Positions 1 to 15,828 of a DNA stretch of 36,219 nucleotides are shown one piece after another. The DNA is taken from IMG/VR virus record IMGVR_UViG_2571042636_000009; one strand, given 5' to 3'. This DNA is from a virus. Taxonomy: Duplodnaviria > Heunggongvirae > Uroviricota > Caudoviricetes. The notes below the pieces were generated by a model. The model was not told where the DNA came from, did no database searches, and saw only the letters and a program-made list of their open reading frames with translations. Position numbers and translations under genes: made by a program. Within the stretch, counting starts at the first letter, position 1; the number at the start of each line of letters is the position of its first letter.

Positions 1-1
1 A

Positions 2-1297
2 TTAATTTTTCATTGCTTCGTTATGGGGCATGGTTGGGGCAAACTCGCTTAACTGTGTATTTAACAAAGCTACCTGTGCATTATTGTTTTCAGACATCCA
101 TTTTCCGTATACCTGAAATACCATTTGCGCATCTGCATGGCCCATCTGGTTTGCTATAAATGCCGGGTTAGCACCAGCTGTCAGCGACCAGCAGGCATAA
201 GTATGTCTCGACTGATATGATTTTCGATGGCGGAGTCCGGCACGTTTTATCGCTGCGTCCCACATCTGCCTTATTGAGTCAACGGTAAAATGGTCACCAT
301 AATTTTTTACTCTCGCTGACACTTCAGGTTGAAAAACAAAGGTGCATTTATGTTTTTCTGTTCTGCCATACTCTCTGAGGTGAACATCAATGATATGCTC
401 TTTGCTCAGTCTCGTTAATGTCATCTGACTCCGGAGAGCGTCGATTGCTGGCTTAATAAGATGAATGACCCGATTGGTTCCCGCCTGTGTTTTTGGTACC
501 GTGAAACGGTCTTTTGCTAAATTTCTCCTGATCATCATTGTTCCATTTTTCAGATCTATGTCCTCCCATCCAAGTGCACACAGCTCACCAGGGCGAACGC
601 CAGTATAAACAGAAACACACCATAAATTTTTGGCTTGCTGATTTCTGCACGCATCGATAAGACGGATGAATTCCTCCCGCGAAAGAGGATCCGGAATGGT
701 TCTTGATTCCTTTAATGGCGAGATCCCCTTAAACGGGTTATCTAACAGGTAACCGTTATCAACACCAAACTGGAACACGGCGTTAAGATTTGTCATGTAA
801 TTATTTACAGTTACAGCCGATCTCCCTGGTTGTGTAACAATATAGTTACTTTTGGGGATCTGGTATCCAGTCAGTAGCTCTTTACGAACCTCCAGTAATT
901 TTTCTTTATTAATCGATGAGGCAAGATTTTTTTCACCGATTATGCTCAGGATATTTTTGATGACGGCACGGTATGTGTTGAGTGATGTTTTTGCGACTTC
1001 AGTTTCTTTCAGTGCCAGAAATTTTTCAGCCAGTTCTTTTATGGTTAAATCTTGTCGGGCCTCACCAAATTTTTCCAGATTGCGTGAGGAGGGAAACTGT
1101 TTTGCATAGTCGAAAACACCAGTTTTTATTGCGTAACAAACAGAGGCGCGTAGCTCACCTGCAACGCGCCTGTTTTTTGCTGTGTCAGGAACCCCCAGGT
1201 TTTCCCTGACTCTTACGCCTTTATAAACAAACCAGATACGTAATTTCCCTCCATGGTTTTCCACGCCTGTCGGATATTTCATTTCAACTTCTCTCAT
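2..1297 (-). CDS. int: Phage tyrosine integrase (site-specific recombinase)
   Basis: 431-aa ORF with tyrosine-recombinase catalytic signature residues (TGVRPGE Arg, SRHTYA His-x-x-Arg, VYGKW Tyr); first gene of the prophage arm, followed by an excisionase-like gene. Alternative start at 1282 (MKYPTG). The 3-prime end is at the window edge, so the attachment site is probably outside the window. Confidence 0.85.
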   Translation of the reverse strand: MREVEMKYPTGVENHGGKLRIWFVYKGVRVRENLGVPDTAKNRRVAGELRASVCYAIKTGVFDYAKQFPSSRNLEKFGEARQDLTIKELAEKFLALKETEVAKTSLNTYRAVIKNILSIIGEKNLASSINKEKLLEVRKELLTGYQIPKSNYIVTQPGRSAVTVNNYMTNLNAVFQFGVDNGYLLDNPFKGISPLKESRTIPDPLSREEFIRLIDACRNQQAKNLWCVSVYTGVRPGELCALGWEDIDLKNGTMMIRRNLAKDRFTVPKTQAGTNRVIHLIKPAIDALRSQMTLTRLSKEHIIDVHLREYGRTEKHKCTFVFQPEVSARVKNYGDHFTVDSIRQMWDAAIKRAGLRHRKSYQSRHTYACWSLTAGANPAFIANQMGHADAQMVFQVYGKWMSENNNAQVALLNTQLSEFAPTMPHNEAMKN

Positions 1298-1316
1298 TAG
1301 TTAGTGTGGCTTTTAG

Positions 1317-1568
1317 TCAAGTAAGATGACGTCTTGGTCTCGCTGATGCCTGGCGCTCAATCCAGCGATCAATTTCTTCCAGGTTGTAAAAGCATGGACT
1401 GTTATCCCATGGCATACCGTCATGAGCGACATGCTTATATTCCCTTCCTTCCATAAACGATTTTTCCCGGGCCTTTTTTAACGTACCTTTTTTTATTCCT
1501 TTCAGCGCAATTAACTGCTCTTCGGATACCCATTTGCCGGGAGAGACAATCATGATTACTTCGCTCAT
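1317..1568 (-). CDS. xis: Excisionase-like small DNA-binding protein
   Basis: 83-aa ORF immediately upstream of int on the same strand, small and basic; position and size fit a phage Xis. Start may be the internal Met at 1553. Confidence 0.55.
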   Translation of the reverse strand: MSEVIMIVSPGKWVSEEQLIALKGIKKGTLKKAREKSFMEGREYKHVAHDGMPWDNSPCFYNLEEIDRWIERQASARPRRHLT

Positions 1569-1640
1569 CGATTTCTTTATCTCTTACATCAGACGAGCGC
1601 CGGTTGCAGAATACCAGTCACAACCGGCGACAGTTGAACA

Positions 1641-4112
1641 TTAAGAATCAGCCTGACTCGGGATCAGTTTTTGCCAGATAACTGAAACGTATTTTGCCTG
1701 GTAACGGGCGTCATCAAGTGCATTATGGCGCTCACCTTCGAATGGAATAGCCGTTCTGGCATCGAAGTCTATGGCTTTCCCCAGCTCAACGATTGTGCGT
1801 ACATCGCGATCGTTGTAGTAACGCCACGGGCAGGGGATCCCCTGCCGTTCGTATGAACGACGCAAAATCGTGTTGTCGAAGTTGGCTCCATTTCCCCAAA
1901 CCTGAACAAAAAATTCACCGGAGTTTTCGTCGATAAATTCCCGCAATTGTAACAGTGCATCATCTAACGGGATTTCATCGGTCATAATGGCAGATTGCGC
2001 TTCGCGTGATTGCTTAAGCCACCATTTAATGGTGTCCCGATCAATGACTCCGCCAGCAGTTTCCAGATCGATAGTCTTACTAAATTCCGGTCCCATATCT
2101 CCGGTTTGCGGATCGAAAAATATTGCACCTATTGAGATGATCGGGGCATCAGGATTTTTTCCCATGGTTTCAAGGTCGATCATTAGATGGTCACACGTCC
2201 TGCTGGTGGATGTGATTTCGTGATGACCGTTCACCTTAATTGAGTGATCTGCCGTCTCGCCAGTTTCATTATCGCTATTGTGATGCTGATTGCCGCCAGT
2301 GTTCTCCTTGTGTGGATGTTCAGCGCCTTCCATTTCCTCCAGATCATCTTCCTGAACTTCAACCTGATACTCTTCATCGAATGTTTCCTGGTATGTTGCG
2401 TCGCCCATCACCGCGCCACAATCAGGGCAGTTGCCGCCGCCGGTCTGACCGCAGGCGGTGCAGACTTTTTCCACTTCCAGTTGCGCCACTGGTTCAGGCT
2501 GTTTCGTTTCTGGCTCGTTTTGTAACGCATTTGTGCTGTTTTGTTCCGCTTTTTGGTAGTTCCGTTCCGATTCATGCTGGTTCTGGTTCACAGAATCGCG
2601 GGTCTGGATCCCCTTAACCCATTTCGGATCATTCGGGTCACTAATCCCTTCAACAAATTCACCACGTGACGCAGCAAGCAACTTATCGGCGTCAGGCTGG
2701 CTGATATTGGCTGCCTGCATAATTTTGTTTACTTCGTCAGCGGTAACTTTTATCGGCTCTGGTTGTTCTGAATCTTCAGCGGTATCTACATTTTGCGGTA
2801 AGCCCGTGTATGTGCCATTTTTTCGGGCAAAATATTCTTCTTTTGTGATTTCAGTGGCGCCAGCAGCCAGTGCCTTATCCAGACCAGAAAGTTTGTTTGC
2901 GCGACCGTATTTTTCTCCGTCCTTATCTGCGAAGAGGAAATAGAACGGCCCCTCACGCTCTACAGATGGTTCAGCTTCCGGCGCGGTTTCATTTTTTGGG
3001 ATATCAGATACCTCAGTTTCCACTGCATCAGTTTGTGTTTCTGATGACTGGAGAACATCAACAGTGCCCAGGTCTGTTTCTTCATTCTCAAACACGCCCT
3101 TTGTCGTCAGGTATTCGCAGATATATTTGTTCAGTGCTATGGGATCTTTGTGAATGTCGATCGGACGCTCACGGACAAGGCCAAAAATAGTCTGGCGGTC
3201 GTAGCGAAGGGCATCAGGCTGTTTGCGCATTGATGCCGAGATACGCTTCCAGTCTTCGCGGTCGTTGTCGATAACTTCTTTTTTTGCCCAGCGATGGATG
3301 CTGCCGTCAATGTTTCCGGCATCCACATCACCAGGCCAGAGAGCGTAGGCCAGTTCGTCATCCAGTGTTTTCCATGTCTGCTTGTATTCGCGATGAATGG
3401 CAGCAATGACCGGGCTGATTTTTCCTGTTGAATTTTCAGTGTACTGTTGATTGGTTCTGGCGCGGGCGAGATCAACAACAGACGTGTATTTTCCGGTTTC
3501 CTTGCGTTCACCTTCGCGACGTTTTTTCCAGATGCGCATCTCTGCCTGAATTTCGGGCCATTTAGCACCAGGAATACATTTATGCTTAACCCACCCAATG
3601 GCGTGCAACTTAAGCTCCGGATACATGGCGTTAACTTCTGGCATTTTCATCAACGCTTCAACGATATGTCCGTCGAATGTTGCCATGTCTTCCTGCAACA
3701 ATTCCTGTGCGCTAATAACCATATCAACGGTGATGTTTTCACATGTGTCGAACTTAACCATGACAGCGTTCTGTACTTCAGGGGCCAGCTTGTCAAAAGT
3801 GACGTTCATCGGATCGGATTCAGTCTCAACCGGGACAAAAGAAGCAGACTCCTCATCCCAGCGGTTTTCCTGCATATATTCAGCATCCCATGAATCGAGG
3901 GCAGGGCGGGGTATGCCAGGTTTATCCTCGCAGACAATAAATTTATAAGCGCAGTCCTGAGCAGCCGGATAATGTTCCAGGAACTGCCAGTGAAATTTTG
4001 CTCGAGCACGGCGTTCGTCGCCAGCTTCAATGGCTGTGGCTACAGCCACAGCGCCTTCTTCCCTTGTTGCCAGTTCGTCAGGAATAGCGGCGCAAATAAA
4101 GACTTTACTCAT
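1641..4112 (-). CDS. Large early protein with C-terminal DnaQ-like (DEDDh) 3-prime-5-prime exonuclease domain; intact counterpart of the YdfE fragment of K-12 Qin
   Basis: 823-aa ORF. The C-terminus carries exonuclease motifs (MIDLETMG, YNDRDVRT, HNALDDARY). The middle is acidic with a CTACGQTGGGNCPDCGA zinc-ribbon-like motif. Sits between xis and the dicB operon. Confidence 0.75.
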   Translation of the reverse strand: MSKVFICAAIPDELATREEGAVAVATAIEAGDERRARAKFHWQFLEHYPAAQDCAYKFIVCEDKPGIPRPALDSWDAEYMQENRWDEESASFVPVETESDPMNVTFDKLAPEVQNAVMVKFDTCENITVDMVISAQELLQEDMATFDGHIVEALMKMPEVNAMYPELKLHAIGWVKHKCIPGAKWPEIQAEMRIWKKRREGERKETGKYTSVVDLARARTNQQYTENSTGKISPVIAAIHREYKQTWKTLDDELAYALWPGDVDAGNIDGSIHRWAKKEVIDNDREDWKRISASMRKQPDALRYDRQTIFGLVRERPIDIHKDPIALNKYICEYLTTKGVFENEETDLGTVDVLQSSETQTDAVETEVSDIPKNETAPEAEPSVEREGPFYFLFADKDGEKYGRANKLSGLDKALAAGATEITKEEYFARKNGTYTGLPQNVDTAEDSEQPEPIKVTADEVNKIMQAANISQPDADKLLAASRGEFVEGISDPNDPKWVKGIQTRDSVNQNQHESERNYQKAEQNSTNALQNEPETKQPEPVAQLEVEKVCTACGQTGGGNCPDCGAVMGDATYQETFDEEYQVEVQEDDLEEMEGAEHPHKENTGGNQHHNSDNETGETADHSIKVNGHHEITSTSRTCDHLMIDLETMGKNPDAPIISIGAIFFDPQTGDMGPEFSKTIDLETAGGVIDRDTIKWWLKQSREAQSAIMTDEIPLDDALLQLREFIDENSGEFFVQVWGNGANFDNTILRRSYERQGIPCPWRYYNDRDVRTIVELGKAIDFDARTAIPFEGERHNALDDARYQAKYVSVIWQKLIPSQADS

Positions 4113-4205
4113 TTTGTTTTAACCTCATGACAGATTTAAGGATGAACAAATCCCTGCCATTGCTGGCATATAAGAATGAAACCGGATATTTATTACGGAA
4201 CTGTT

Positions 4206-4397
4206 TTAAAGACCTGCCGGGATTTCGTTATTATCCTGGTGAATAACTTTATCGACCGGGTAACAGTTACCGGGAATTTTCTGTTCGGTTGCTGCAGTCA
4301 TACACTCCTGCATTGTCCTGTGCACACTGACTGCAATATCAACTGGCTCTCCGGAAACAAGAAAAACTGTCAGAACAAGCACAAATGCTGAATTCAT
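4206..4397 (-). CDS. ydfD: YdfD lysis protein (63 aa, N-terminal hydrophobic segment)
   Basis: Recalled YdfD sequence MNSAFVLVLTVFLVSGEP...; start overlaps the dicB stop (translational coupling); last gene of the dicB operon. Confidence 0.8.
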   Translation of the reverse strand: MNSAFVLVLTVFLVSGEPVDIAVSVHRTMQECMTAATEQKIPGNCYPVDKVIHQDNNEIPAGL

Positions 4398-4582
4398 TGT
4401 GCACATCCTTTTGGCATCAGACGTAAACGAGCCAGCATTGAAACAATGCATATTTTATTTAATAGCTCCCGTTCTTGTTTTCTCTTGTTAATGGCATCTT
4501 CAGTAAATACTGGGTTACTGATAGTGACACCAATTTCAAAACAACCTTCAGACGTATTAACGTTTGGTAATAACGTTTTCAT
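4394..4582 (-). CDS. dicB: DicB cell-division inhibitor (62 aa)
   Basis: ORF translates to MKTLLPNVNTSEGCFEIGVTISNPVFTEDAINKRKQERELLNKICIVSMLARLRLMPKGCAQ, which I recognise as DicB; lies directly downstream of the DicF sequence. Confidence 0.9.
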   Translation of the reverse strand: MKTLLPNVNTSEGCFEIGVTISNPVFTEDAINKRKQERELLNKICIVSMLARLRLMPKGCAQ

Positions 4583-4751
4583 TATCGCGTCCTCAACAAT
4601 GAATTTTGTGATGCAGTGCCTGGTGCCTCCAGGTGACGTTAACCAGTTAACAATTAACGCCGGATACAGAGAATCCACCCATAACACTGTTTTTGGTTTT
4701 AACTGTTCCGCGTGCGCTCAGCCGCATTCACCACATCACAAAATTCACTTT

Positions 4752-4809
4752 AAAAAGGGCGGCAGAGCAGTCACGGAGTAAAACTGATACCGCCAAACGT
4801 CACCAGAAA
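4752..4809 (-). ncRNA. dicF: DicF small regulatory RNA (ftsZ-targeting sRNA)
   Basis: Minus strand reads TTTCTGGTGACGTTTGGCGGTATCAGTTTTACTCCGTGACTGCTCTGCCGCCCTTTTT, matching the DicF sequence as I recall it; located between ydfC and dicB as in Qin. Exact ends are approximate. Confidence 0.85.
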
Positions 4810-5149
4810 ATTGATAACAGAGGGCGTTGCAGCGGGGTTGTCACTTAAGCGTATGGTCAACCTGACAACCCGGTGTCCTCAACGGGGAAGGAATAACCCC
4901 GCCATACTTACCGCCGCGCCATTTCGCGGGTTGCCACAACCGGAAGCGCACGGTCGACGAAAATTTAACGACAGGCTATCTATGAACCAGCTACCTCGCC
5001 GTGCGCTTTCGCGTTATGGTCTGACTTTTCAGGGAAATATCCTTTCAGTAAACTGTCAGTGCCGGATGCTCACCCGTGTCCGGCGCACGCACTCCACCTC
5101 ACCCGTGGAGAACTCCTTAATTACTAACCTTAGCTTTGTTGATTAGCTA

Positions 5150-5368
5150 CTAACGCGGGTATGTAATCATTCTGGCAATGCTTAATGCCGCTGCTTTTTC
5201 CAGATTGGTGATATCCTGCTCCAGAGCGGACAGATTTTCAGCCTGCTTAGCCCTGGTTTCATTGGCCCATTTCAAATCCTGCGCTGCATTAATTTTCTGG
5301 CGCATCCACTCATAAAGTTCATCATCGGTATAGTCTGGCGCGATGATGACGGGTTCTCGTTTCTGCAT
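5150..5368 (-). CDS. ydfC: YdfC (72 aa) of the dicB operon
   Basis: ORF MQKREPVIIAPDYTDDELYEWMRQ..., recognised as YdfC; correct position upstream of dicF. Confidence 0.8.
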   Translation of the reverse strand: MQKREPVIIAPDYTDDELYEWMRQKINAAQDLKWANETRAKQAENLSALEQDITNLEKAAALSIARMITYPR

Positions 5369-5397
5369 ACTGATTCCTCGCGGTGCTGTTTCGCTTA

Positions 5398-5526
5398 TCA
5401 GCCGTTAGATTTTGCCGAACTGGAAAGCGCCTGTTTAAATTCGTTGAAGCTGAGAGCTTCTTCGCCGTCGGCAAGACCTTCGAAGTATTCTTCGTAAGCC
5501 TTTTCCATGATTGTGTCGAAATCCAT
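5398..5526 (-). CDS. ydfB: YdfB (42 aa) small protein of the dicB operon
   Basis: Hand-translated minus-strand ORF MDFDTIMEKAYEEYFEGLADGEEALSFNEFKQALSSSAKSNG (not in the supplied track, too short); size and position match ydfB between ydfA and ydfC. Confidence 0.7.
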   Translation of the reverse strand: MDFDTIMEKAYEEYFEGLADGEEALSFNEFKQALSSSAKSNG

Positions 5527-5527
5527 A

Positions 5528-5683
5528 TCACTCACCTGAGTTTCTTTCCAGCCAGCGACGGGCACCATTTTCGGTTTTAAACGTTTTGCTTTTGGTATAC
5601 GTCATCGCGGTGAACGTACCGTCCTGGTTGGGGAACACGCCACATACCAGAGATTCGCTGTTGCCAAGATCGATAGTATCCAT
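5528..5683 (-). CDS. ydfA: YdfA (51 aa), first gene of the dicB operon
   Basis: Internal Met of the 78-aa track ORF gives MDTIDLGNSESLVCGVFPNQDGTFTAMTYTKSKTFKTENGARRWLERNSGE (51 aa), matching YdfA in size and position. Confidence 0.75.
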   Translation of the reverse strand: MDTIDLGNSESLVCGVFPNQDGTFTAMTYTKSKTFKTENGARRWLERNSGE

Positions 5684-5889
5684 GCTGACCTCATTTCCCC
5701 TTAACGCCGGGGTAGCGGAACAAAAACCTGCTGCATAGTTATTAAAGTTGAACCCTGCCGTCATGTTCTTACGCCTCGGGCTGGCTACTTAACCCCTGAC
5801 CACTGCCCGGTAACTAGAAGTATTGCCCTGCATTCTGTGGGGTGGGGAGAGGGAATGAATGAAGTTTAGAAAAATGAACTTTTCAGGTC

Positions 5890-5911
5890 AATGTTTTTTT
5901 ATCAAAACATT
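5890..5911. promoter_or_regulatory. Operator-like palindrome (GTTTT-N6-AAAAC) in the leader of the early-left (dicB) operon
   Basis: AATGTTTTTTTATCAAAACATT is a 22-bp inverted repeat sharing the GTTTT...AAAAC core with the sites in the repressor/cro intergenic region; located between the repressor gene and ydfA. Confidence 0.45.
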
Positions 5912-5975
5912 TTAAGCAGGCAGCTGTTAAGCCATCACCACGATGGCATACAGTTAATCAAATAGATGAGGTCGG

Positions 5976-6614
5976 TTAAATATTTTGTTGAATTTTAAAG
6001 CATACGCCCAATATGCAAGATAGATCATCCAGCATAATTGAAGGGTAGCGAGGATTCGTGGGGACTAAAAGAATATCCGGCCCTTCTATCTCCAGTTTAC
6101 GAATGACAGGTGTTGTGGTCCCTTTGGGTAAGGCAAGGACAATATTTCCTGGTTGTACGGTTCGATCGGGATCAACAAAAACTGTTGAACCATTTGGGAT
6201 GGAAACTCCCCCACCAGATGTTGACATACTGTCACTCTCTAGAACAACTGCAAAGGTATTGGCCGGGATTTCTCCGACAAGCTGCACACAAGAGGTTATT
6301 GAGGAATTTTTCATATAATCACTCCAGCTTGCTGCCTGCTGAAGTGATAGTAGCGGAACCGTTTTTATCGGCGGTAAAGATAGATCAAGCGAATCACCTG
6401 TATTTAACTCTCCTCCATTAAGAAGCCAATTTTCGTTTACTTTCAATATTTTTGCCAGTGAACTTATGTAACGCGAGGACGGCGCTCCTCCACCGTTCAT
6501 CCATTGACTTACGGAGCCTTTTGATGCGCCAGTGGCATTGACAAGGTCTTTGCCTTTCAGGTTTAGCGCATGCATACGTTGGGTTATGCGTTCAGATATT
6601 GTTTGCTTGTTCAT
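5976..6614 (-). CDS. CI-like phage repressor, full length: N-terminal HTH plus C-terminal S24 (LexA-like) autopeptidase domain
   Basis: 212-aa ORF with an HTH-like N-terminus (GASKGSVSQWMNG), a Ser nucleophile context (ESDSMS) and a downstream Lys (VIRKLE) typical of S24 peptidases; divergent from the Cro-like gene. Confidence 0.85.
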   Translation of the reverse strand: MNKQTISERITQRMHALNLKGKDLVNATGASKGSVSQWMNGGGAPSSRYISSLAKILKVNENWLLNGGELNTGDSLDLSLPPIKTVPLLSLQQAASWSDYMKNSSITSCVQLVGEIPANTFAVVLESDSMSTSGGGVSIPNGSTVFVDPDRTVQPGNIVLALPKGTTTPVIRKLEIEGPDILLVPTNPRYPSIMLDDLSCILGVCFKIQQNI

Positions 6615-6676
6615 GTTTTGATTTTAAAACACAGATGGTTTTGTTTCTTGACTTTCTTTGGTTTTGATTATTAAAC
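6615..6676. promoter_or_regulatory. Immunity-region operator cluster: three GTTTTG(A/T)TT sites spaced 23 bp apart in the divergent repressor/cro promoter region
   Basis: GTTTTGATTTTAAAAC at 6615-6630, GTTTTGTTT at 6638-6646 and GTTTTGATTATTAAAC at 6661-6676. The outer two are partial palindromes; 23-bp centre-to-centre spacing resembles lambda OR1-OR3. Confidence 0.5.
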
Positions 6677-6705
6677 TTTTGGCGTTCAGTTTTATGGAGC
6701 GACTC

Positions 6706-6948
6706 ATGAAAAAATCAGAAGTATTAGGCTATTTTGGCGGAGTTGTTAAAACAGCCGCAGCTCTAGGAACGTCAAAAACCACAGTCAGCATGTGGGGGGA
6801 AGAGGTTCCGTGGAAATGGGCGTTGCTAATTCAGGCAGTCACTGCCGGGGCGCTCAAATATGAGTTACACATACCGACGGTTGTCATTCCCGGTTCTGAT
6901 CATAATCCGCCTTCTAACCAAGGGGGGATTCATGAAAATCAAGCATGA
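6706..6948 (+). CDS. Cro-like / YdaS-family small DNA-binding protein
   Basis: 80-aa ORF divergent from the repressor, with GGAG 7 nt upstream of the ATG and an HTH-like segment (KTAAALGTSKTTVSMW). Confidence 0.7.
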   Translation: MKKSEVLGYFGGVVKTAAALGTSKTTVSMWGEEVPWKWALLIQAVTAGALKYELHIPTVVIPGSDHNPPSNQGGIHENQA

Positions 6949-7357
6949 ACACATCCGCATGGCGATGAATGCCTGGGCGCGTCCTGATGGCGAAAAAGTT
7001 CCGGCAGCTGGAATAACCCAGGCTTATTTTGAGTTGGGTATGACGTTTCCTGAACTGTACGACGACAGCCATCCGGAAGCCCTGGCTCGCAATACCCAGA
7101 AAATTTTCCGCTGGATAGAGAAAGACACCCCTGATGCAGTTGAAAAAATTCAGGCGTTGTTACCAGCGATCGAAAAGGCAATGCCACCTTTGCTGGTGGC
7201 CAGAATGCGCAGCCACAGTTCAGCTTATTTTCGGGAGCTGGTGGAGACGCGGGAGCGACTGGTGAGAGACGCTGATGATTTTGTCGCAGTGGCAATCGCC
7301 GGTTTCAATCAGATGAACCGTGGTGGCCCGGCAGGAAATGCTGTGGCAGTACATTGA
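6932..7357 (+). CDS. YdaT-like (CII-position) regulatory protein
   Basis: 141-aa ORF starting MKIKHEHI, with a strong RBS (AAGGGGGG); recalled similarity to Rac YdaT; sits in the position of lambda cII. Confidence 0.6.
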   Translation: MKIKHEHIRMAMNAWARPDGEKVPAAGITQAYFELGMTFPELYDDSHPEALARNTQKIFRWIEKDTPDAVEKIQALLPAIEKAMPPLLVARMRSHSSAYFRELVETRERLVRDADDFVAVAIAGFNQMNRGGPAGNAVAVH

Positions 7358-7428
7358 CTGACAATAGCCATATCGAATCGCTTCCGGCAACTCGTGAGTA
7401 AAAAGATTCGGTATCAGAAGAGGTGAGT

Positions 7429-8499
7429 ATGGCTAACGCCTGGCTCAGATTATGGCATGACATGCCAAATGACCCTAAGTGGCGAACAATTGCCAGGGTG
7501 TCAGGGCAGCCAATTGCAACAGTGATGGCAGTGTATATCCACCTCCTGGTGAGCGCGTCACGAAATGTCACGCGAGGTCACATTGATGTCACGACAGAAG
7601 ATTTGGCAAGTGCGCTCGACGTGACAGAAGAGGTAATTGATTCAATTTTGCAGACGATGCAGGGGCGGGTACTTGATGGTGATTTAATCACTGGATGGGA
7701 AAAACGCCAGGTGCTTAAAGAGGACAACGGCAATATTTCGCAAACCGCAAAATCTCCTGCAGAGCGCAAGAGGGCGCAGCGAGAGAGGGAAAGAAAGCGG
7801 GAACAAAATGGCGATTGTCACGGCGCGTCACGAAATGTCACGCACATGTCACGACGAGTCACGACAGATAAAGATACAGATAAAGATACAGATCAAGAAG
7901 ATCAAAACACTATGGTCCATGGCGTAAAAAACGCCACGAACCAGGCAGGGGATGTTCAGACCGTCAATCTTGGTCAGCCAGCAGGCACGACACCGGAAGC
8001 CGATTCAGCGTATGCGCTGAAAGCCGATTCGGGCGCTGTGCAGCAGGTGATGACCGCAAGGCCGGAGCAATCACACCAACTGCAGCAGCCCGAAGCCGAT
8101 TCCGCCATTCAGCGGGAAGCCGATCGGGTAGTCCCGGAAAACACCGGGCAGTCTGTGGGACGAGTGGATTATCCGGATGTGTTCGAACAGGTCTGGCGGG
8201 AGTACCCGTTGCGTGCTGGGGCAAACCCGAAGAAATCCGCTTTCAGTGCCTGGAAGGCCAGATTACGCGAGGGGGTGCCACCAGAGGCCATGCTGGATGG
8301 CGTGAGGCGTTACGCAAGATACTTGGCGGCTACCGGGAAAACGGGAACGGAATTTGTTCAGCGAGCGACGACGTTTTTTGGACCGGACCGGAATTTTGAG
8401 AACCCCTGGTTGCTCCCGGTAAGCGGCACGAACAACCAGCGTTGTGTGAATCATATTTCTGAACCGGATAACGAAATTCCGCCGGGCTTCAGGGGGTAA
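7429..8499 (+). CDS. Phage replication initiator / replisome organiser (O-like)
   Basis: 356-aa ORF after the cro/cII-like genes; N-terminal domain, charged low-complexity linker (ERKRAQRERERKRE, TDKDTDKDTD) and C-terminal domain. Contains iteron-like GTCACG repeats with about 10.5-bp phasing in the linker region, as in lambdoid ori inside O. Confidence 0.7.
   Translation: MANAWLRLWHDMPNDPKWRTIARVSGQPIATVMAVYIHLLVSASRNVTRGHIDVTTEDLASALDVTEEVIDSILQTMQGRVLDGDLITGWEKRQVLKEDNGNISQTAKSPAERKRAQRERERKREQNGDCHGASRNVTHMSRRVTTDKDTDKDTDQEDQNTMVHGVKNATNQAGDVQTVNLGQPAGTTPEADSAYALKADSGAVQQVMTARPEQSHQLQQPEADSAIQREADRVVPENTGQSVGRVDYPDVFEQVWREYPLRAGANPKKSAFSAWKARLREGVPPEAMLDGVRRYARYLAATGKTGTEFVQRATTFFGPDRNFENPWLLPVSGTNNQRCVNHISEPDNEIPPGFRG
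7553..7573. repeat. 21-bp direct repeat GCGCGTCACGAAATGTCACGC, copy 1 (iteron-like)
   Basis: Exact 21-bp match to 7824-7844; embedded in a run of GTCACG motifs at 7556, 7567, 7577 and 7588. Confidence 0.7.
7816..7900. repeat. Candidate replication origin: five GTCACG iterons with 10-11 bp spacing followed by AGATAAAGATAC tandem repeats
   Basis: GTCACG at 7817, 7827, 7838, 7849 and 7859, then a tandem 12-mer AGATAAAGATAC x2.5 (A-rich); inside the interdomain linker of the initiator gene. Confidence 0.55.
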
Positions 8500-8539
8500 G
8501 TGTTAATTTCTGGTCATGAGGTAATTTTCAGGAGGGCTT

Positions 8540-8962
8540 GTGGCAAAAGTTTTTACACAAGAAGAGCGGGAAAAAATTAAAGGACAGGTTGTTGAACTCG
8601 TACGCCAGAGTGGGCGTGAGACGTTACGGCAACTGGAAGTCAAGACAGGTGCGACAAGATATCTGATGAGCGTTCTCGCAAGAGAGCTGGTTGCCAGCGG
8701 CGATGTATGCAACTCTGGTTACGGGTTATTCCCGTCTGAACAGGCGCGTAAGGACTGGCAAAATGCCCGTAAAAAGCTCTCAAGGGCAAAGCTGAAGAAA
8801 CCATCTGCGGTTGATCCGGACCTTATCTGGTCATTACCTGACGGAGAAATACGTCGCTACGACAGGCGTCAGAACATAATCTGTCGCGAGTGCCGGAAGA
8901 GTGAAGTTATGCAGCGCATATTGTCGTTTTATCAGGGTGATGTTCGGTATTTATTGAAGTGA
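8540..8962 (+). CDS. Hypothetical protein (140 aa) in the helicase-loader position
   Basis: Clean ORF with backbone-like GC content directly after the initiator gene; no family recognised (basic, CRECRK motif). Confidence 0.5.
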   Translation: MAKVFTQEEREKIKGQVVELVRQSGRETLRQLEVKTGATRYLMSVLARELVASGDVCNSGYGLFPSEQARKDWQNARKKLSRAKLKKPSAVDPDLIWSLPDGEIRRYDRRQNIICRECRKSEVMQRILSFYQGDVRYLLK

Positions 8963-9093
8963 CGAGATTAAAGTGCATTAGTTCAGATGCAAATTGACAT
9001 TTTGTGGCACAGGGTAGAGCTAGCGTGGTTGTCCGCTTTGTGCCAATAGCGGACATTGCTGGCTCATGGTATGTTAGTTTAAGGAGGCAGGTT

Positions 9094-10116
9094 ATGCCCT
9101 GTATTTCGCTGTGGTATAATAGTTGCGCAATTGATACAAGGGAGCGTTACATCGTGAAAATTGTTTTCGAGGTTAATGGAAAGAAAGTTCCACTAAAATC
9201 TTTAAAATACATAAGCAAAAAAGATCAACTCGAAGTAATGAAAAACTGGTTCTTTGAAAACTTTGAAGATCCGGCAAATGCTTGTCCGTATGAAAGTAGA
9301 GAAGGTGGCTATGCTTACATATATGGCGGGCCGTATGATGCGAGCGAAGAACTACAATCCATCTTCGGTCAATATGTTAAATCTGAGTATATTGAGGAAT
9401 TAGTAGATGAATTACAAACACAATGTTTTGACTGGTCTGGAAACTCAAATAATATAGATGATTGGTACGATGATGATATCTACGACGCTGTAACGTCTTC
9501 CGGTAATCCGTATTTAAAATTCATTGATAATATCGATAAAATAAAAAAACTTGCAAAAGATAAAACTGAACAACAGCAAAAAAACCACTTGCTTAGTTTG
9601 CTCTACACGAATGTTATTACAGCTTTGGAAACGCTTTATGTTGAGCTATTCATTAATTCTATAGAGAAAGATGATGTCTACATAGCCAATTGTATAGAAA
9701 AAGGTAAGACTGAATTTAAAGTAAGCAAAGATATTGCTGCGTTGCCTTTCAAGGGTGAACCCATCGAGAAAATTAGGGGAGAGCTAATCAGGTCAATCAA
9801 GGAACACTTGATCAGTGCAAGCTGGCATAGCACTAAAAAGGTAATCGACCGCTATGAAGCTACATTCGATATAAAAGTACAAAAAGACTGTCCGATAGAA
9901 GCTATTGAATTGGCAACCCTCAATCGAAATCACTTAGTGCATCGTGGTGGAAAGGATAAAGAAGGGAACCTCGTAGTGATTACAGACCAGGATCTTGAAA
10001 CGCTGATTGAAAATGCATCGAACCTGGCAATTATGCTCTACAACAGTTTAAATGTAGCAACGAATAAAACCACCATTTTGCAACCAGATGACAAACCGTT
10101 CATTCATGAATTTTAA
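9094..10116 (+). CDS. Candidate defense/toxin-module protein A with a C-terminal HEPN-like Rx4H motif (predicted RNase-type domain)
   Basis: 340-aa ORF (AAGGAGG 6 nt before the ATG at 9094; alternative GTG start at 9154 giving 320 aa). Strongly AT-rich compared with the flanks. Motif RNHLVH near the C-terminus matches the HEPN Rx4-6H signature. No named family recognised. Confidence 0.6.
   Translation: MPCISLWYNSCAIDTRERYIVKIVFEVNGKKVPLKSLKYISKKDQLEVMKNWFFENFEDPANACPYESREGGYAYIYGGPYDASEELQSIFGQYVKSEYIEELVDELQTQCFDWSGNSNNIDDWYDDDIYDAVTSSGNPYLKFIDNIDKIKKLAKDKTEQQQKNHLLSLLYTNVITALETLYVELFINSIEKDDVYIANCIEKGKTEFKVSKDIAALPFKGEPIEKIRGELIRSIKEHLISASWHSTKKVIDRYEATFDIKVQKDCPIEAIELATLNRNHLVHRGGKDKEGNLVVITDQDLETLIENASNLAIMLYNSLNVATNKTTILQPDDKPFIHEF
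9112..9120 (+). promoter_or_regulatory. Candidate extended -10 promoter element (TGgTATAAT) at the 5-prime edge of the AT-rich insert
   Basis: TGGTATAAT is a perfect extended -10; its position would fit the GTG start at 9154. It conflicts with the ATG start at 9094, so either the element or the longer start is wrong. Confidence 0.35.
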
Positions 10117-10131
10117 TAGCGCAGGTCATAC

Positions 10132-11133
10132 ATGGATATTCGCACACGAAAGACAAAATTTTTAGAGTCGTTAGATTCAACTGAAGTGATACGCAAAGCA
10201 GTAAGTCTCGCTATAGATTGCATTATTGATAATCATAATAGTAATGAAGATACCCCCTTAGTTATTACCAGCTATGATGATCTCTGTAGAATCCAGGTGC
10301 TAAATTATGTACAGGAGTTTTGCGAAGCTGCATTCCCTGATATGGATGAATATTACTTTAGTCCTAACATACTTCGCATCAACGGCAAGACTAGTGAAGA
10401 AGCTTGTATTAACTTAATTAAACTCTTAAGAAGTACAAAAGGCATGCTATTCTGGTCCGATGCCCCATCGTGGTTCGCTAGTCTCCCCGACGGATTATTC
10501 CATGTTGTTAACATTGATCAAAAAATCGTTACTCGCGGCCTTAATAAGAAAAACTCTAAGCCGACAATAATCAATAAAGATTACAGTGTAGATACACTAC
10601 TATCAGAGCTATTTTTGAATGGCGCACACATGGAGCAACCCAACGTACACAACGTTTCTGAGGGAAACATGAAGTTCTATGATGAATGCCATGCTGGATT
10701 AATCAGACCAATACCCGCTCCAATAGGCGCGTCATACGATGAAGAGATCACAATTAATTCTCCAGATTGGCAAAAGCTCGCGTGTGTAGCTTTACGCCGC
10801 TATCAGTCGAAGGAATGTCATGACGGAATGCAATGGGATACAACCGATCATGGTTGGACTGATGTAATCGCGTATCCATTCGTCGAAGAAATACAATCAA
10901 TGGATAATAGTGGTTATCGACAATGTTTAGTTGGGCTGGTCACAATAAACAATTCAAATGCAAATTCTCCGTACCTATCTACCGTTTGGATACATCCATT
11001 TTATCGCAGGAGAGGGTTATTAAGTAAGTTATGGCCAAAATTACAAGAGTTATATGGAAGTAACTTCGAAATTGAGCGACCTAATGAAAATATGAAAGCA
11101 TTTCTGAAAAGTGCGAAACACGCAGATTACTAA
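10132..11133 (+). CDS. Candidate defense/toxin-module protein B with a C-terminal GNAT-like acetyltransferase motif
   Basis: 333-aa ORF starting 15 nt after the stop of protein A (operon), AT-rich. The C-terminal segment LVGLVTINN...STVWIHPFYRRRGLLSKLW resembles a GNAT beta4-alpha3 motif; the N-terminal roughly 190 aa is unrecognised. Confidence 0.55.
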   Translation: MDIRTRKTKFLESLDSTEVIRKAVSLAIDCIIDNHNSNEDTPLVITSYDDLCRIQVLNYVQEFCEAAFPDMDEYYFSPNILRINGKTSEEACINLIKLLRSTKGMLFWSDAPSWFASLPDGLFHVVNIDQKIVTRGLNKKNSKPTIINKDYSVDTLLSELFLNGAHMEQPNVHNVSEGNMKFYDECHAGLIRPIPAPIGASYDEEITINSPDWQKLACVALRRYQSKECHDGMQWDTTDHGWTDVIAYPFVEEIQSMDNSGYRQCLVGLVTINNSNANSPYLSTVWIHPFYRRRGLLSKLWPKLQELYGSNFEIERPNENMKAFLKSAKHADY

Positions 11134-11244
11134 TTTATGAATCAGTCTGTGGAGTTAGGGTTGGTGTCAACAAGTAGGGTAAGAGCCTCAACGTGATGCT
11201 ATGCCGACCTGCTCCCTGAGAATTCACACAGAAGGCTGCTAGCA

Positions 11245-11535
11245 ATGTCTACAGATCGCTCAAAGCGGACTAGAAGGTTAGCTTGCGTCGGACTTGGCGT
11301 ATTTAAAGAAGTGCTGGTGGTGACTGGTTGTTGTGTTCCATTTCTACAGAACAAAATCACAGAAACTATACCCAATAGTTATATTGAATCAATGATGAGA
11401 CAGCCTCATATTTATCAGGACTGGTGTACGTCCAATACAGGAGGTTGTCGTGCTGGTTCTCAAATGTGCGCTAGCTATTGCGGCTGTAATGGCAATTTAT
11501 TGTCTTGCTGTTGTTCTTACGGATCGCCTTTCTGA
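11245..11535 (+). CDS. Hypothetical cysteine-rich small protein (96 aa)
   Basis: ORF with an AGAAGG RBS-like element about 8 nt upstream; the C-terminal 35 aa hold 10 Cys (GGCRAGSQMCASYCGCNGNLLSCCCSYGS). It could be spurious. Confidence 0.3.
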   Translation: MSTDRSKRTRRLACVGLGVFKEVLVVTGCCVPFLQNKITETIPNSYIESMMRQPHIYQDWCTSNTGGCRAGSQMCASYCGCNGNLLSCCCSYGSPF

Positions 11536-11750
11536 TTGATTTTATATTGGCGAGGTGACGTGAGTTAAGTAGAATTGCTGCGGGTGCTTGAGGCTATCTG
11601 CCTCAGGCATGAACACCAAAGGCAGATAGAGAAAAGCCCCAGTTAACATTACGCGTCCTGCAAGACGCTTAACATTAATCTGAGGCCAATTTCATGCTAG
11701 ACACATGTAGGTTAGCCTCTTACGTGCCGAAAGGCAAGGAGAAGCAGGCT

Positions 11751-11906
11751 ATGAAGCAGCAAAAGGCGATGTTAATCGCCCTGATCGTCATCTGTTTAAC
11801 CGTCATAGTGACGGCACTGGTAACGAGGAAAGACCTCTGCGAGGTACGAATCCGAACCGGCCAGACGGAGGTCGCTGTCTTCACAGCTTACGAACCTGAG
11901 GAGTAA
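11751..11906 (+). CDS. hokD: Hok-family membrane toxin HokD (RelF), 51 aa
   Basis: Translation MKQQKAMLIALIVICLTVIVTALVTRKDLCEVRIRTGQTEVAVFTAYEPEE recognised as HokD/RelF; the in-frame upstream extension from 11694 is read as a mok-like leader. Confidence 0.9.
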   Translation: MKQQKAMLIALIVICLTVIVTALVTRKDLCEVRIRTGQTEVAVFTAYEPEE

Positions 11907-11975
11907 GAGACCAGGCGAGGGAGAAATCCCTCGCCACCTCTGATGTGTCAGGCATCCTCAATGCACCCGCACTTA

Positions 11976-11998
11976 ACCCGCTTCGGCGGGTTTATTTT
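11976..11998 (+). terminator. Rho-independent terminator after hokD
   Basis: Hairpin CCCGC-TTCG-GCGGG followed by a T-run (TTTATTTTAT). Confidence 0.6.
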
Positions 11999-12364
11999 AT
12001 CTGTAAATATTTTTATAAAAATAATGCCCACACACAGCATAAAACAAAAAGTATCACAGATAAAAAAGGAGCGTAATGTGCAGATTTGTTGTTTTCCATA
12101 TTTACTCACTTTAACATAATCAAAATTGATATGGTTGTTGTTTTGGTGGTTTCAAACGAGATGTTATGGTGATCTGGTAAAATTGCATAACATTAAAATT
12201 TAATTTATCTAATCGCTTTTAATAATAAGCGTTGTGTTTATCCCAACAATCTGTTGTTTGACTTTTATTCCATTAATGTAGGGGCTTTACACTGGAACCA
12301 GTTTATTTATACTTTATACGCCAGCCTGAACAACTGGCACCTGCTGCGCCAGCAGAGACAACCG

Positions 12365-12643
12365 ATGGCGCACGATACCAAATTACACAATTCTGATGAT
12401 TCTGCCGTCTTTGCCAGCAGGTGCGGACGGCGTTTTCATGTATTCAAATCGGACTGGTTCCAGCATCCACCATGCACTGAAGAGCAGGCTGAATGGATAA
12501 TTCAGTGTTACCGCAGGCGCGGATACGAGGTTAAAAAAGCCCTTAGCCTCGACTACCGTCACTGGATAATCTCAGTCAGATTGCCTTACTCCGAACGCCC
12601 ACCGCGTCCGTCCCACACATTCCAGCAACGCATCTGGAGGTAA
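12365..12643 (+). CDS. rem: Rem-like small protein (position of rem in Qin)
   Basis: 92-aa ORF from an internal ATG (MAHDTKLHNSDDSAVF...), directly upstream of and overlapping the ydfU start; identity from recalled gene order hokD-rem-ydfU. Confidence 0.5.
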   Translation: MAHDTKLHNSDDSAVFASRCGRRFHVFKSDWFQHPPCTEEQAEWIIQCYRRRGYEVKKALSLDYRHWIISVRLPYSERPPRPSHTFQQRIWR

Positions 12644-12644
12644 C

Positions 12645-13694
12645 GTGCGGGTATTACTTCGACCTGTTCTGGTACCGGAACTCGGGCTGGTGATCGTTAA
12701 GCCGGGCCGTGAATCCATGCCGGTATTCCACAATACCCGGTTACTGGTGGAGCCGGAACCGAAAAGCATGCGTAATCTGCCGTCCGGGGTCGTTCCTGCC
12801 GCTCGCCAGCCGCTGGTGGAAGACAAAACATTGCTGCCGTTTTTCAGTAACGCACGGGTGATTCGTGCTGCTGGTGGTGCTGGTGCATTGTCTGACTGGC
12901 TGTTGCGCCATATTAAATCCTGCCAGTGGCCACACGGCGATTATCATCACAGCGAAACCGTCATTCACCGTTATGGTACCGGCGCAATGGTGTTGTGCTG
13001 GCACTGCGACAACCAGCTGCGTGACCAGACATCCGAATCACTCGAGCAACTTGCTCATCAAAACCTGTCAGCATGGATGATTGACGTCATCGGTCACGCA
13101 ATAAGCGGTACGCAGGAGCGTGAATTATCTCTGGCTGAATTATCCTGGTGGGCGGTCCGCAATCAGGTGGCGGACGCGCTACCGGAAGCGGTATTACGTC
13201 GCTCGCTGGGATTACCAGCGGAAAAAAACTGCTCGGTGTACCGCGAAAGCGACATCGTACCGGGAGAGCAGACCGCCACCAGCATATTGAAACAGCGCAC
13301 AAAAAATCTTGCACCGTTGCCTCACGCCCACCAGCAACAAAACCCATCACAGGAAAAAACGGTGGTAAGCATCACCGTTGATCCTGAGTCTCCGGAATCT
13401 TTCATGAAGCTGCCTAAACGTCACCGTTGGGTTAAGGAGAAATACACACGCTGGGTTAAGACACAGCCGTGTGCTTGCTGCGGTATGCCAGCCGACGATC
13501 CGCATCATCTGATTGGTCACGGGCAGGGCGGAATGGGAACCAAAGCACATGATCTCTTTGTGTTGCCTTTGTGCAGAAAGCATCACGACGAGTTGCATAC
13601 GGATACCGTGGCATTTGAAGAGAAGTATGGCTCCCAACTGGAGCTGATTTTTCGATTTATCGATCGCGCGCTGGCAATTGGTGTGCTGGCCTAA
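12645..13694 (+). CDS. ydfU: YdfU (DUF968 family) prophage protein
   Basis: 349-aa ORF, same length as K-12 YdfU, with C-terminal Cys/His-rich motifs ([23 protein letters not shown]); lies between rem and the Q antiterminator. Confidence 0.7.
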
Positions 13695-13711
13695 TTTTGT
13701 GGAGTAAGTTG

Positions 13712-14089
13712 ATGCGTGATATTCAGATGGTTCTTGAGCGTTGGGGGGCATGGGCGGCTAATAATCATGAAGATGTGACCTGGTCGTCCATTGCCGCCGG
13801 TTTTAAGGGATTAATTCCTTCAAAAGTAAGATCTCGTCCGCAATGCTGTGACGATGACGCGATGATCATTTGTGAATGTATGGCTCGCCTGAAAAAAAAC
13901 AACAGCGATTTACATGATTTATTGGTGGACTATTATGTCGGCGGCATGACTTTTATGGCGCTTGCACGTAAGCATGGGCGATCTGATTGTTGGGTTGGCA
14001 GGATGCTCCAGAAAGCTGAGGGCGTAGTGGAGGGCATGCTGATGGTGTTGGATCTCCGATTGGAGATGGATGCTGATTGTTCGAAATAA
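13712..14089 (+). CDS. quuQ: Late-gene antiterminator Q (phage 82 / QuuQ type)
   Basis: 125-aa [21 protein letters not shown]..., with GGAGTAAG RBS; recognised as QuuQ-like; located just upstream of the late/lysis region. Confidence 0.8.
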
Positions 14090-14188
14090 TTAAAGGAAAA
14101 GTTGCTGTCTGATTTTCATTAGTCTAACATTTTAAATGTTGGAATCGCAACGTAGTTATTATCATATAACAGCTTGTTTCCTGATTTA

Positions 14189-14217
14189 GCCAGCCTCCCC
14201 AAAGGCTGGTTTTTTTC
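14189..14217 (+). terminator. Rho-independent terminator downstream of Q (candidate tR-prime-like late terminator)
   Basis: Hairpin GCCAGCC-TCCCCAAA-GGCTGG followed by TTTTTTT; about 100 bp after the Q stop, where lambdoid phages carry PR-prime, qut and tR-prime. Confidence 0.55.
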
Positions 14218-14481
14218 TAATAAGTATCATTTCGGGTGGGGATTTTATTGTTTAACCCATAATAGTTCATTGACATTGAATCCCAACTTTTGAGCGGTAC
14301 GCACATAGTCTGCTTTTACATTATCTGGAATAGTTTGGGTCCTTGCCAGAATCCATAGGTATTCTCTGTTCGGACCACTGACAAGAGCATACTTATACTC
14401 ATCATCCAGCTTGATTACATTATAGCCACCATAGAAGGGGCCAAAAAACGAAACTTTCAACGCTGCAGTTTTAGTATCTCC

Positions 14482-14490
14482 AGTAAAGTA
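14482..14490. repeat. 9-bp target-site duplication AGTAAAGTA (left copy) flanking IS10
   Basis: Identical 9-mer immediately outside both IS10 termini (14482-14490 and 15820-15828). Confidence 0.9.
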
Positions 14491-14536
14491 CTGATGAATC
14501 CCCTAATGATTTTTATCAAAATCATTAAGTTAAGGT

Positions 14537-14605
14537 AGATACACATCTTGTCATATGATCAAATGGTTTCGCCAAAAATCAATAATCAGACAACAAAATG
14601 TGCGA
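14537..14605 (-). ncRNA. IS10 RNA-OUT antisense RNA (approximate coordinates)
   Basis: Placed from known IS10 organisation (RNA-OUT is antisense to the transposase translation start near the outside end); not independently verifiable here. A GATC Dam site at 14558-14561 lies in the pIN region. Confidence 0.4.
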
Positions 14606-15806: not shown

Positions 15807-15819
15807 GGGGATCTCTCAG

Positions 15820-15828
15820 AGTAAAGTA
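15820..15828. repeat. 9-bp target-site duplication AGTAAAGTA (right copy) flanking IS10
   Basis: Identical to 14482-14490. Confidence 0.9.

Follow-up and report, generated by a model that had tools for sequence, protein, structure and literature searches.

An intact dicBF operon in the early-left position of a full-size Qin-family lambdoid prophage, and the structured RNA that precedes its DicF

In the Qin prophage of Escherichia coli K-12, the small RNA (sRNA) DicF acts together with Hfq and base-pairs with the ribosome-binding site of ftsZ, as well as with xylR, pykA and manX (PMC5069750). The protein DicB recruits MinC to the septal ring via ZipA and blocks Z-ring assembly (PMC5069750, PMC6832061); DicB is in addition an inhibitor of ManYZ and FhuB, proteins of the inner membrane that serve some phages for DNA entry, and DicB-dependent protection from lambda and related phages has been described (PMC6832061). 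Full induction of the operon is toxic to the cell (PMC5069750). RNase E cleavage of the polycistronic transcript makes the 5' end of K-12 DicF. Its 3' end has two origins: transcription stops at the DicF hairpin and U-run, leaving 53 nt, or read-through RNA is cut by RNase III, leaving 72 nt (PMC5069750, PMC9438474, PMC6582626). The natural inducer of the K-12 operon is unknown, and DNA damage does not induce it (PMC5069750, PMC6832061). A BLAST search of about 2000 phage genomes in 2016 returned neither DicB nor DicF, and the presence of the operon in defective prophages, with its absence from phage genomes, was read as a sign that it matters more to the host than to the phage (PMC5069750). 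Here we describe a copy of this operon in IMG/VR virus record IMGVR_UViG_2571042636_000009, a Caudoviricetes stretch of 36,219 nucleotides (the window, to which all coordinates refer). We conclude that it is very probably a canonical dicBF operon serving as the early-left operon, of the type driven in lambda from the leftward promoter P_L, of a full-size Qin-family lambdoid prophage.

The initial annotation had recognised ydfA, ydfB, ydfC, DicF, dicB and ydfD in one co-directional block, without naming its strand. All six were found intact on the minus strand (5683..4206), and the identification as a dicB (dicBF) operon with DicF was correct for every element:

5683..5528, minus strand: ydfA, 51 aa; DUF1391 (Pfam, 96.2 bits); 49/51 residues identical to K-12 YdfA
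5526..5398, minus strand: ydfB, 42 aa; phrog_2061; 40/42 identical to K-12 YdfB
5368..5150, minus strand: ydfC, 72 aa; phrog_1744; 71/72 identical to K-12 YdfC
4809..4757, minus strand: DicF sRNA, 53 nt, followed by a U-run at 4756-4752; RF00039
4582..4394, minus strand: dicB, 62 aa; MinC-dependent division inhibitor; 62/62 identical to K-12 DicB
4397..4206, minus strand: ydfD, 63 aa; DUF1482 (Pfam, 89.2 bits); lysis protein; 62/63 identical to K-12 YdfD

The order ydfA-ydfB-ydfC-dicF-dicB-ydfD on one strand is that of Qin-type dicBF operons, and 567 untranslated nucleotides, with DicF inside them, separate ydfC from dicB. The reported overlap of dicB and ydfD is the ATGA at 4397..4394, which joins the ydfD start codon (ATG, 4397..4395) to the dicB stop codon (TGA, 4396..4394). 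YdfD is reportedly a cause of lysis (Masuda et al. 2016, Lu et al. 2020). DicB scores well above its family cut-offs (NCBIfam NF049927, 132.8 bits against 100; Pfam PF05358, 136.8 bits against 27). A 2.6-kb stretch 100% identical to the window occurs in at least 18 complete E. coli genomes (strain KSC9 and 17 others), in which the NCBI Prokaryotic Genome Annotation Pipeline (PGAP) gives the same names, ydfA, ydfB, ydfC, dicB and ydfD, and chance resemblance is thereby ruled out. The block is a canonical, ordinary copy of an already known operon, of a kind that NCBI's pipeline annotates routinely. The functions that had been quoted for DicB and DicF are likewise the published ones (PMC5069750, PMC6832061), and from their identity with the tested K-12 products, the window's DicB and DicF would be expected to inhibit division through MinC and ftsZ, respectively.

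We also ran the suggested comparison with Qin of K-12 MG1655. The DNA is 98.6% identical over 1622 nt, with two differing residues each in YdfA and YdfB, one each in YdfC and YdfD, and none in DicB; DicF is identical at 53/53 positions. Homology to K-12 begins at 5721, 38 nt upstream of ydfA, and runs leftward into the exonuclease gene that follows the operon, and the DNA upstream of 5721 has no K-12 homology. Matches to K-12 in this region are limited to window 1-1161 and 3346-5721; the alignment indicates that K-12 Qin has lost what corresponds to window 1162-3345, and that the window shows the undeleted state of the ydfE pseudogene region. The operon is common: among 5426 complete E. coli genomes, 4756 have some match to it, and in 2230 a single place holds 80% of it or more, the places per genome numbering 2 at the median and 10 at most. 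The 2.6 kb with the immunity type of the window is present, to 80% or more, in 714 genomes.

For DicF, failure of a covariance-model search had been named as the outcome that would refute the assignment. When the search was run, the region matched RF00039 end to end (4808..4757, model positions 1-52/52, E = 2e-15), its 76.7 bits lying well above the gathering score of 48. The 3' end of DicF forms the hairpin GGCGGUAUCAG...CUGCUCUGCCGCC, followed by C UUUUU at 4756-4752, an intrinsic terminator and Hfq module. The predicted DicF-ftsZ pairing spans the Shine-Dalgarno sequence and start codon of ftsZ; its energy of -38.5 kcal/mol was equalled by 48 of 500 shuffles, so that the duplex energy alone is unexceptional.

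The five small genes were compared, each against the window allele, with diverged alleles from other prophage and phage contigs, which were pooled and are not phylogenetically independent. The pooled ratio of non-synonymous to synonymous change (pN/pS) was 0.16 for ydfA, 0.27 for ydfB, 0.09 for ydfC (where it rests on few alleles), 0.18 for dicB and 0.32 for ydfD. Full-length alleles were intact in 31/31 cases for ydfA, 17/17 for ydfB, 3/3 for ydfC, 8/8 for dicB and 21/23 for ydfD. These low ratios and intact alleles support the view, already taken in the initial annotation, that the block is selected rather than decaying; the substitution pattern indicates purifying selection on all five genes, and its direction is clear.

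The operon lies between an immunity repressor gene and the recombination and integration genes of the prophage:

6614..5976, minus strand: immunity repressor, 212 aa; N-terminal helix-turn-helix (HTH; HTH_3) domain and C-terminal S24 (LexA/lambda cI-type) peptidase domain; in the position of K-12 dicA
5892-5910, minus strand: operator-like palindrome TGTTTTTTTATCAAAACA, abutting the predicted promoter
5891..5863, minus strand: predicted leftward (P_L-like) promoter, TTGACC-17-TAAACT, 9/12 match in a promoter scan
4112..1641, minus strand: exonuclease, 823 aa; Rv2179c-like 3'-5' exoribonuclease (Pfam, 226.5 bits); intact form of K-12 ydfE
1568..1317, minus strand: excisionase, by its PGAP name in the collinear KSC9 prophage
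1297..2, minus strand: integrase, by its PGAP name in the collinear KSC9 prophage

Repressor, operon and exonuclease, xis and int are all read from the minus strand, and a P22_Cro-family gene and a YdaT-like gene diverge from them on the plus strand. The exonuclease, xis and int genes (2..4112), co-directional and downstream, probably belong to the same early-left transcription unit. Genes for int, xis, exonuclease, cI, cro, replication, Q, lysis, terminase, portal, capsid and tail were all seen in the window, the last tail genes being that of the tape measure and then an M-like gene (35539-35868); hok/sok, a DUF968 gene, a csp gene and a protease-capsid fusion were seen as well. The description of the surroundings as an otherwise complete prophage thus holds as far as the window reaches, and the tail tip and fibres fall outside it. 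Window 1-13687 is collinear, at 98.8%, with a prophage of strain KSC9 that lies between ydfJ and rspB, the Qin attachment site, and strain 22AR0750 has a sibling prophage there, which runs on through J, lom, stf and tfa to ydfJ. We take the window's prophage to be a full-size lambdoid one of the Qin family, with the operon in its early-left position.

The repressor has the same position and orientation as DicA in the K-12 arrangement, and it is a different protein. It scores 41.5 against a cut-off of 101 with the DicA subfamily model, over residues 1-71 only, and 30.7 against 130 with that of DicC; the Peptidase_S24 domain of Pfam scores 50.5 bits against a cut-off of 23.3. Residues 13-204 align to residues 25-224 of lambda cI (PDB 3bdn), with the serine motif ESDSM conserved. 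In the identical sequence of KSC9, PGAP calls just the C-terminal 113 aa ("LexA family protein") and omits the HTH half of the 212-aa open reading frame (ORF). The palindrome beside the predicted promoter has two relatives between cI and cro (6613-6631 and 6661-6679). Because the repressor has a LexA-type peptidase domain that K-12 DicA lacks, its sequence suggests that this operon variant could respond to DNA damage, an idea that we hold loosely.

We propose the following scheme for the operon. In the lysogen, the 212-aa HTH and S24 repressor would bind the palindrome beside the leftward promoter (~5863-5910) and keep the operon silent. Upon induction, for which RecA-stimulated self-cleavage of the repressor after DNA damage may be the trigger, the operon would be transcribed as an early host-takeover module, the counterpart of lambda kil, and the induced module would arrest division and exclude superinfecting phages.

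Several observations weigh against this scheme or parts of it. In the repressor, the column of the lambda Ala111-Gly112 cleavage site is Ala-Ala, and that of the catalytic Lys192 is Arg, with Lys one residue later, and it is for these reasons that inducibility by the SOS response is held loosely. The promoter and operators are predictions at the level of consensus, and the operator motif is not significantly enriched over the window (6 matches against 2.0 +/- 1.4 expected). The start of the operon showed no N-type antiterminator gene, arginine-rich motif or nut site, and Rfam gave only DicF and a weak STnc100 match there; no recognised element thus accounts for transcription beyond the DicF terminator, into dicB, ydfD, exonuclease, xis and int. 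Finally, the prophage is visible in the window only as far as the M-like gene.

The argument of 2016 can be set beside the present phage collection, in which 60 records match the region. Phage records with the operon include Tritos (with DicF and DicB annotated), PhiR42_1, HannyBb and mEp460_ev081; PhiR42_1 combines DicA/DicC-type immunity with the order ydfABC-dicF-dicB-ydfD-exo-xis-int. The ON4706xx "phage" records are prophages located in clinical isolates and were not counted as virions. This occurrence in phage records and the location of the operon are together most simply read as the marks of a module for host takeover and exclusion in the early lytic phase, comparable to lambda kil; a benefit to the lysogenic host is possible and is not needed. 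The opposite emphasis, that the operon is domesticated and kept mainly for the host, for phage resistance or for control of morphology under stress or anaerobic conditions, would make its presence in this prophage incidental to the biology of the phage. It draws on the retention of the operon by K-12 Qin despite the loss of part of the exonuclease gene and of other left-arm DNA (window 1162-3345) and an intQ annotated as a pseudogene, on its very wide spread in several copies per genome, on the published DicB-dependent protection from lambda-related phages (PMC6832061) and on the 2016 argument that it occurs only in defective prophages (PMC5069750). Here, however, the operon stands in a full-size prophage, in the early-left position and under the immunity repressor; its occurrence in deposited phage genome records removes the 2016 argument, and the toxicity of full induction (PMC5069750) is as expected for a function of the lytic phase. 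We thus consider it rather unlikely that host benefit is the main reason for its maintenance, while noting that the two explanations are not mutually exclusive. The complete-prophage setting assigns the operon to the phage's early-left unit; it is no demonstration of a domesticated, host-beneficial function. Yet another account would make the block a neutral remnant that looks intact only through recent acquisition, and the window copy is indeed just 1.4% diverged from K-12, a pair that by itself has little power. Across the diverged alleles, however, each of the five genes shows 3 to 10 times more synonymous than non-synonymous change and nearly all alleles are in frame, and DicF, the spacer duplex and the structured RNA described below (module A) are kept in phages whose flanks otherwise differ, so that we regard neutral persistence as exceedingly improbable.

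The untranslated region around DicF is no featureless spacer; it holds a conserved, covarying domain upstream and a long duplex downstream, as follows:

4941..4822, minus strand: module A, a 120-nt four-way-junction RNA that ends 16 nt upstream of the DicF 5' end
4940-4933 / 4833-4826, minus strand: P1 of module A (RNAalifold and minimum free energy (MFE) fold)
4929-4925 / 4918-4914, minus strand: P2 of module A (RNAalifold and MFE)
4912-4910 / 4874-4872, minus strand: P3a of module A (RNAalifold and MFE)
4901-4897 / 4887-4883, minus strand: P3 of module A (RNAalifold and MFE)
4871-4863 / 4843-4835, minus strand: P4 of module A (RNAalifold and MFE)
4907-4902 with 4856-4851, minus strand: proposed pseudoknot of module A, GUAUGG/CCAUAC, six bases
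4598..4749, minus strand: dicF-dicB spacer ("module C"), with a long-range duplex of ~21 bp, 4749-4729 pairing with ~4618-4598

The four-way junction of module A was recovered both by RNAalifold and by the MFE fold of the single sequence. In 59 distinct sequences, aligned by a covariance model that did not include the pseudoknot, 95.9% of cells can pair, compared with 34-53% when partners are slid; compensatory change occurs in ten pairs, and none of 500 shuffles reaches the observed values. These sequences are closely related, and most were retrieved by a 23-nt pattern inside the P4 loop, so that conservation of this loop is partly by construction. The pseudoknot changes from GUAUGG/CCAUAC to GCAUGG/CCAUGC in P1-like copies, and its support amounts to essentially one compensatory event. 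The fold energy of the single sequence is unexceptional (z = -1.2), and an RCCA-like tail at the 3' end is conserved often, not universally. Our covariance model R1 scores 142 bits at module A, which is its sole copy in the window; there is none on the P_R side.

By BLAST, homologues of module A occur in Stx2c phages, cdtI, 2H10, Ayreon, Salmonella F1055 and the "dicF-like region" of P1; K-12 Qin has an identical copy, and E. albertii has one. A scan of contigs with a 16-nt pattern (14 positions specified) gave mostly chance matches, of which only that in E. albertii is real, and the established spread is among Enterobacteriaceae phages. In the lambdoid cases, module A lies downstream of, and co-directional with, a cI- or DicA-type repressor gene, and in P1 it follows the C1-controlled Pban promoter by ~50-100 nt. 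Every time, a hairpin and U-run follow it within ~15-45 nt, and the 5' single-stranded "seed" between them differs among phages. Module A is conserved independently of the flanking genes. One further P_L leader resembles that of the window: in vB_Apl-pPE4, a phage stated to infect Actinobacillus (2985-3270), module A lacks the 5' strands of P1 and P2, and the DicF-like unit is tandemly duplicated. The pPE4 genome is otherwise E. coli-type lambdoid sequence, which is odd for the stated host.

No family of Rfam matches module A. It appears undescribed, and a prior account in the Bouche papers of 1990 and 1994 or in the P1 genome paper is possible. Among other identities considered, an anti-sRNA of the AgvB/AsxR type was rejected, as those RNAs are 51-60 nt long and sit at the P_R' moron site, and so was a tRNA or tmRNA, for which ARAGORN finds no gene in the window. 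Coding readings of the ydfC-dicF spacer, namely a plus-strand 111-aa ORF (4811-5146), a minus-strand 36-aa ORF (4951..4841) and the "hypothetical protein" calls in some phage records, were also rejected. Homologues are 118, 120, 121, 123, 124 or 125 nt long, with indels that are not multiples of three, and substitutions follow the base-pairing; module A is therefore non-coding.

On the 3' side of DicF, the MFE fold of 4830..4575 (-90.4 kcal/mol, z = -4.9) contains the DicF hairpin and, directly after it, the ~21-bp duplex, which begins right after the DicF U-run and ends beside the dicB ribosome-binding site. Since it is located right for an RNase III cut, the predicted duplex is likely the RNase III substrate that would give the 72-nt form of DicF. 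The spacer has a sub-threshold match to STnc100 of Rfam (4759..4550, 34.4 bits against a cut-off of 47), and it is kept in front of the kil gene of 75/02 Stx and of pPE4 and also occurs in D6 and P7. In cdtI-type phages, an inverted repeat of ~15 bp, ACAAAACAGAGAAGA ... TCTTCTCTGTTTTGT, lies 3' of the DicF-like terminator (cdtI 2676-2770, 2H10 3176-3270); its position matches that of the window's post-DicF duplex, and its sequence is unlike.

We tentatively suggest, with more doubt than confidence, that module A represents an undescribed class of cis-acting phage RNA, a pseudoknotted four-way junction ahead of a seed-swapped terminator sRNA in repressor-controlled early operons, acting either as an RNA-only antiterminator of N-less phages or as a platform for sRNA maturation. 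Its members would be found in Qin-type prophages (K-12 included), cdtI, 2H10, Stx2c phages, Salmonella F1055 and P1. As a maturation scaffold, module A would fix a single-stranded RNase E site 16 nt downstream and so define the 5' end of the DicF family, a role that could be compared with the release of sRNAs from tRNA 3' trailers or with the stem-loops that guide MicL processing. The 5' end of DicF is RNase E-dependent (PMC5069750), the topology of the four-way junction is cloverleaf-like, and the tight coupling of module A to a DicF-like hairpin and U-run, always within ~15-45 nt while the seed between them varies, would be explained by such a platform. Yet module A, with its 120 nt, its conserved nucleotides outside the helices and its likely pseudoknot, exceeds known RNase E guides in elaboration, and ARAGORN sees nothing tRNA-like in it; DicF is functional from plasmids that lack the module A region (PMC5069750, PMC6582626), and 75/02 Stx and pPE4 keep DicF-like units despite a truncated module A. 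The scaffold role thus seems to us possible, if somewhat short of probable.

An antitermination role, in which module A would act in cis like HK022 put, an RNA that works via the zinc-binding domain of the RNA polymerase beta' subunit, and would modify the polymerase so that dicB, ydfD, exonuclease, xis and int are transcribed despite the DicF terminator, would place it in the slot of lambda nutL-N or HK022 putL, where it indeed lies. In cdtI and 2H10, module A and the DicF-like terminator follow P_L and come before any annotated co-directional gene, in F1055 a single small ORF of the same direction lies ahead of module A, and in P1 it stands ~50-100 nt after the C1-controlled Pban and before a terminator; no N-like protein was found upstream. 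Induction in K-12 gave strong DicB effects with undetectable DicF (PMC5069750), which is compatible with efficient read-through. Homology to HK022 put itself was rejected, as neither BLAST nor the covariance model R1 gave a match, and the presence of just one copy in the window, the P_R side having none, also speaks against this role, as does the tight coupling to an sRNA hairpin, which is unexpected for a processive antiterminator. A counterexample is 75/02 Stx, which has a DicF-type terminator with kil and exonuclease downstream, a truncated module A and no recognisable N, so that an intact module A is not required for read-through in that phage. We also asked whether N takes the place of module A in phages that lack an intact copy; the upstream ORFs of 75/02 Stx are not N-like, a result that does not favour the antiterminator idea and weakens it a little. 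We judge antitermination by module A to be improbable.

Other features of the prophage were noted in passing. The window departs from the KSC9 prophage at a mosaic junction at 13688. A copy of IS10 (14491-15819, 1329 bp; RNA-OUT Rfam match 14536-14605, transposase 14598-15806, 9-bp target duplication AGTAAAGTA) splits blc, a lipocalin cargo gene read from the minus strand and located between Q and the lysis genes, into fragments at 14245-14460 and 15820-16107; the insertion interrupts nothing of phage function, and blc is uninterrupted in strain 22AR0750. The region 13697-18379 comprises a Q of the quuD type (PF06530, 171.6 bits) and cargo genes after Q and before the holin, namely blc::IS10, a YbgA-family gene (16300-17259) and an AraC-like regulator (17657-18379). 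At 11582-11756 (plus strand) there is a type I toxin-antitoxin system, as in Qin, with a sok antitoxin RNA (119.9 bits against 59) and a hokD-type toxin ORF region. At 20690-21105 (plus strand), a 5' untranslated region of the cspA-thermoregulator type (111.1 bits against 78) precedes a cold-shock gene (20844-21059), which lies downstream of the lysis genes, like cspI and cspB in Qin. Two unnamed ORFs of 370 and 333 aa fill 9004-11133 (plus strand) between the replication genes and hok; PADLOC gave no match for them, and Pfam gave only sub-threshold ones (HEPN/RES N-terminal domain; GNAT). The sibling prophage has QueH and a KwaB-like (Kiwa) gene in this slot, which may be a variable site for defence or cargo genes.

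As a finding in itself the operon adds nothing new, being a textbook prophage operon. Two points are worth keeping. First, a LexA-type repressor, not DicA, stands in front of this copy in a full-size prophage, and strains with this immunity type may offer a natural system with DNA damage as a candidate inducer. Second, the untranslated region carries a conserved structured domain that appears undescribed. If module A does control read-through or maturation, the expression of dicB and of the recombination and integration genes beyond the DicF terminator would find its explanation there.

Among known systems, the closest is dicBF of K-12 Qin (b1571-b1576), whose gene order and spacing are the same. 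There, DicA (135 aa, HTH only) and DicC occupy the immunity region, whereas the window has the 212-aa HTH and S24 repressor and a different protein of the P22_Cro family, and the promoter-operator DNA of the two is unrelated. The exonuclease gene, intact in the window, is the pseudogene ydfE with an IS2 fragment in K-12, and K-12 Qin is a 20-kb remnant, unlike the full-size prophage of the window; the chromosomal site of the collinear KSC9 prophage, ydfJ/rspB, is that of Qin in K-12. DicF itself does not differ from RF00039, with its 5' single-stranded seed and terminator hairpin, but the model spans neither module A upstream nor the duplex downstream. In position, the operon corresponds to the lambda P_L operon with kil and to kilR of Rac, leftward from the immunity region and upstream of the recombination and xis-int genes, and lambda kil and Rac kilR inhibit the FtsZ ring in early lytic growth (PMC3961180), the same effect as that of dicBF, with a cI-like repressor also present in the window. 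Lambda, however, uses N with nutL, and Kil; the window has neither N nor nutL, division would be blocked by an sRNA and a MinC-dependent protein, and there is no sequence relationship. The P1 "dicF-like region" (NC_005856, 68791-68892) is a diverged module A, which R1 scores at 85.8 bits, with a terminator hairpin after it, but its 3' unit is a different hairpin without the DicF seed, and it precedes tRNA genes and ban, not dicB. Finally, module A recalls HK022 putL, likewise a structured RNA encoded in cis, which lies in the early-left leader of a lambdoid phage that has no N, with terminators downstream (PMC9378689). HK022 put is ~70 nt long, consists of two stem-loops and serves both the left and right operons (PMC9378689), whereas module A is a four-way junction of ~120 nt with a likely pseudoknot and is present once.

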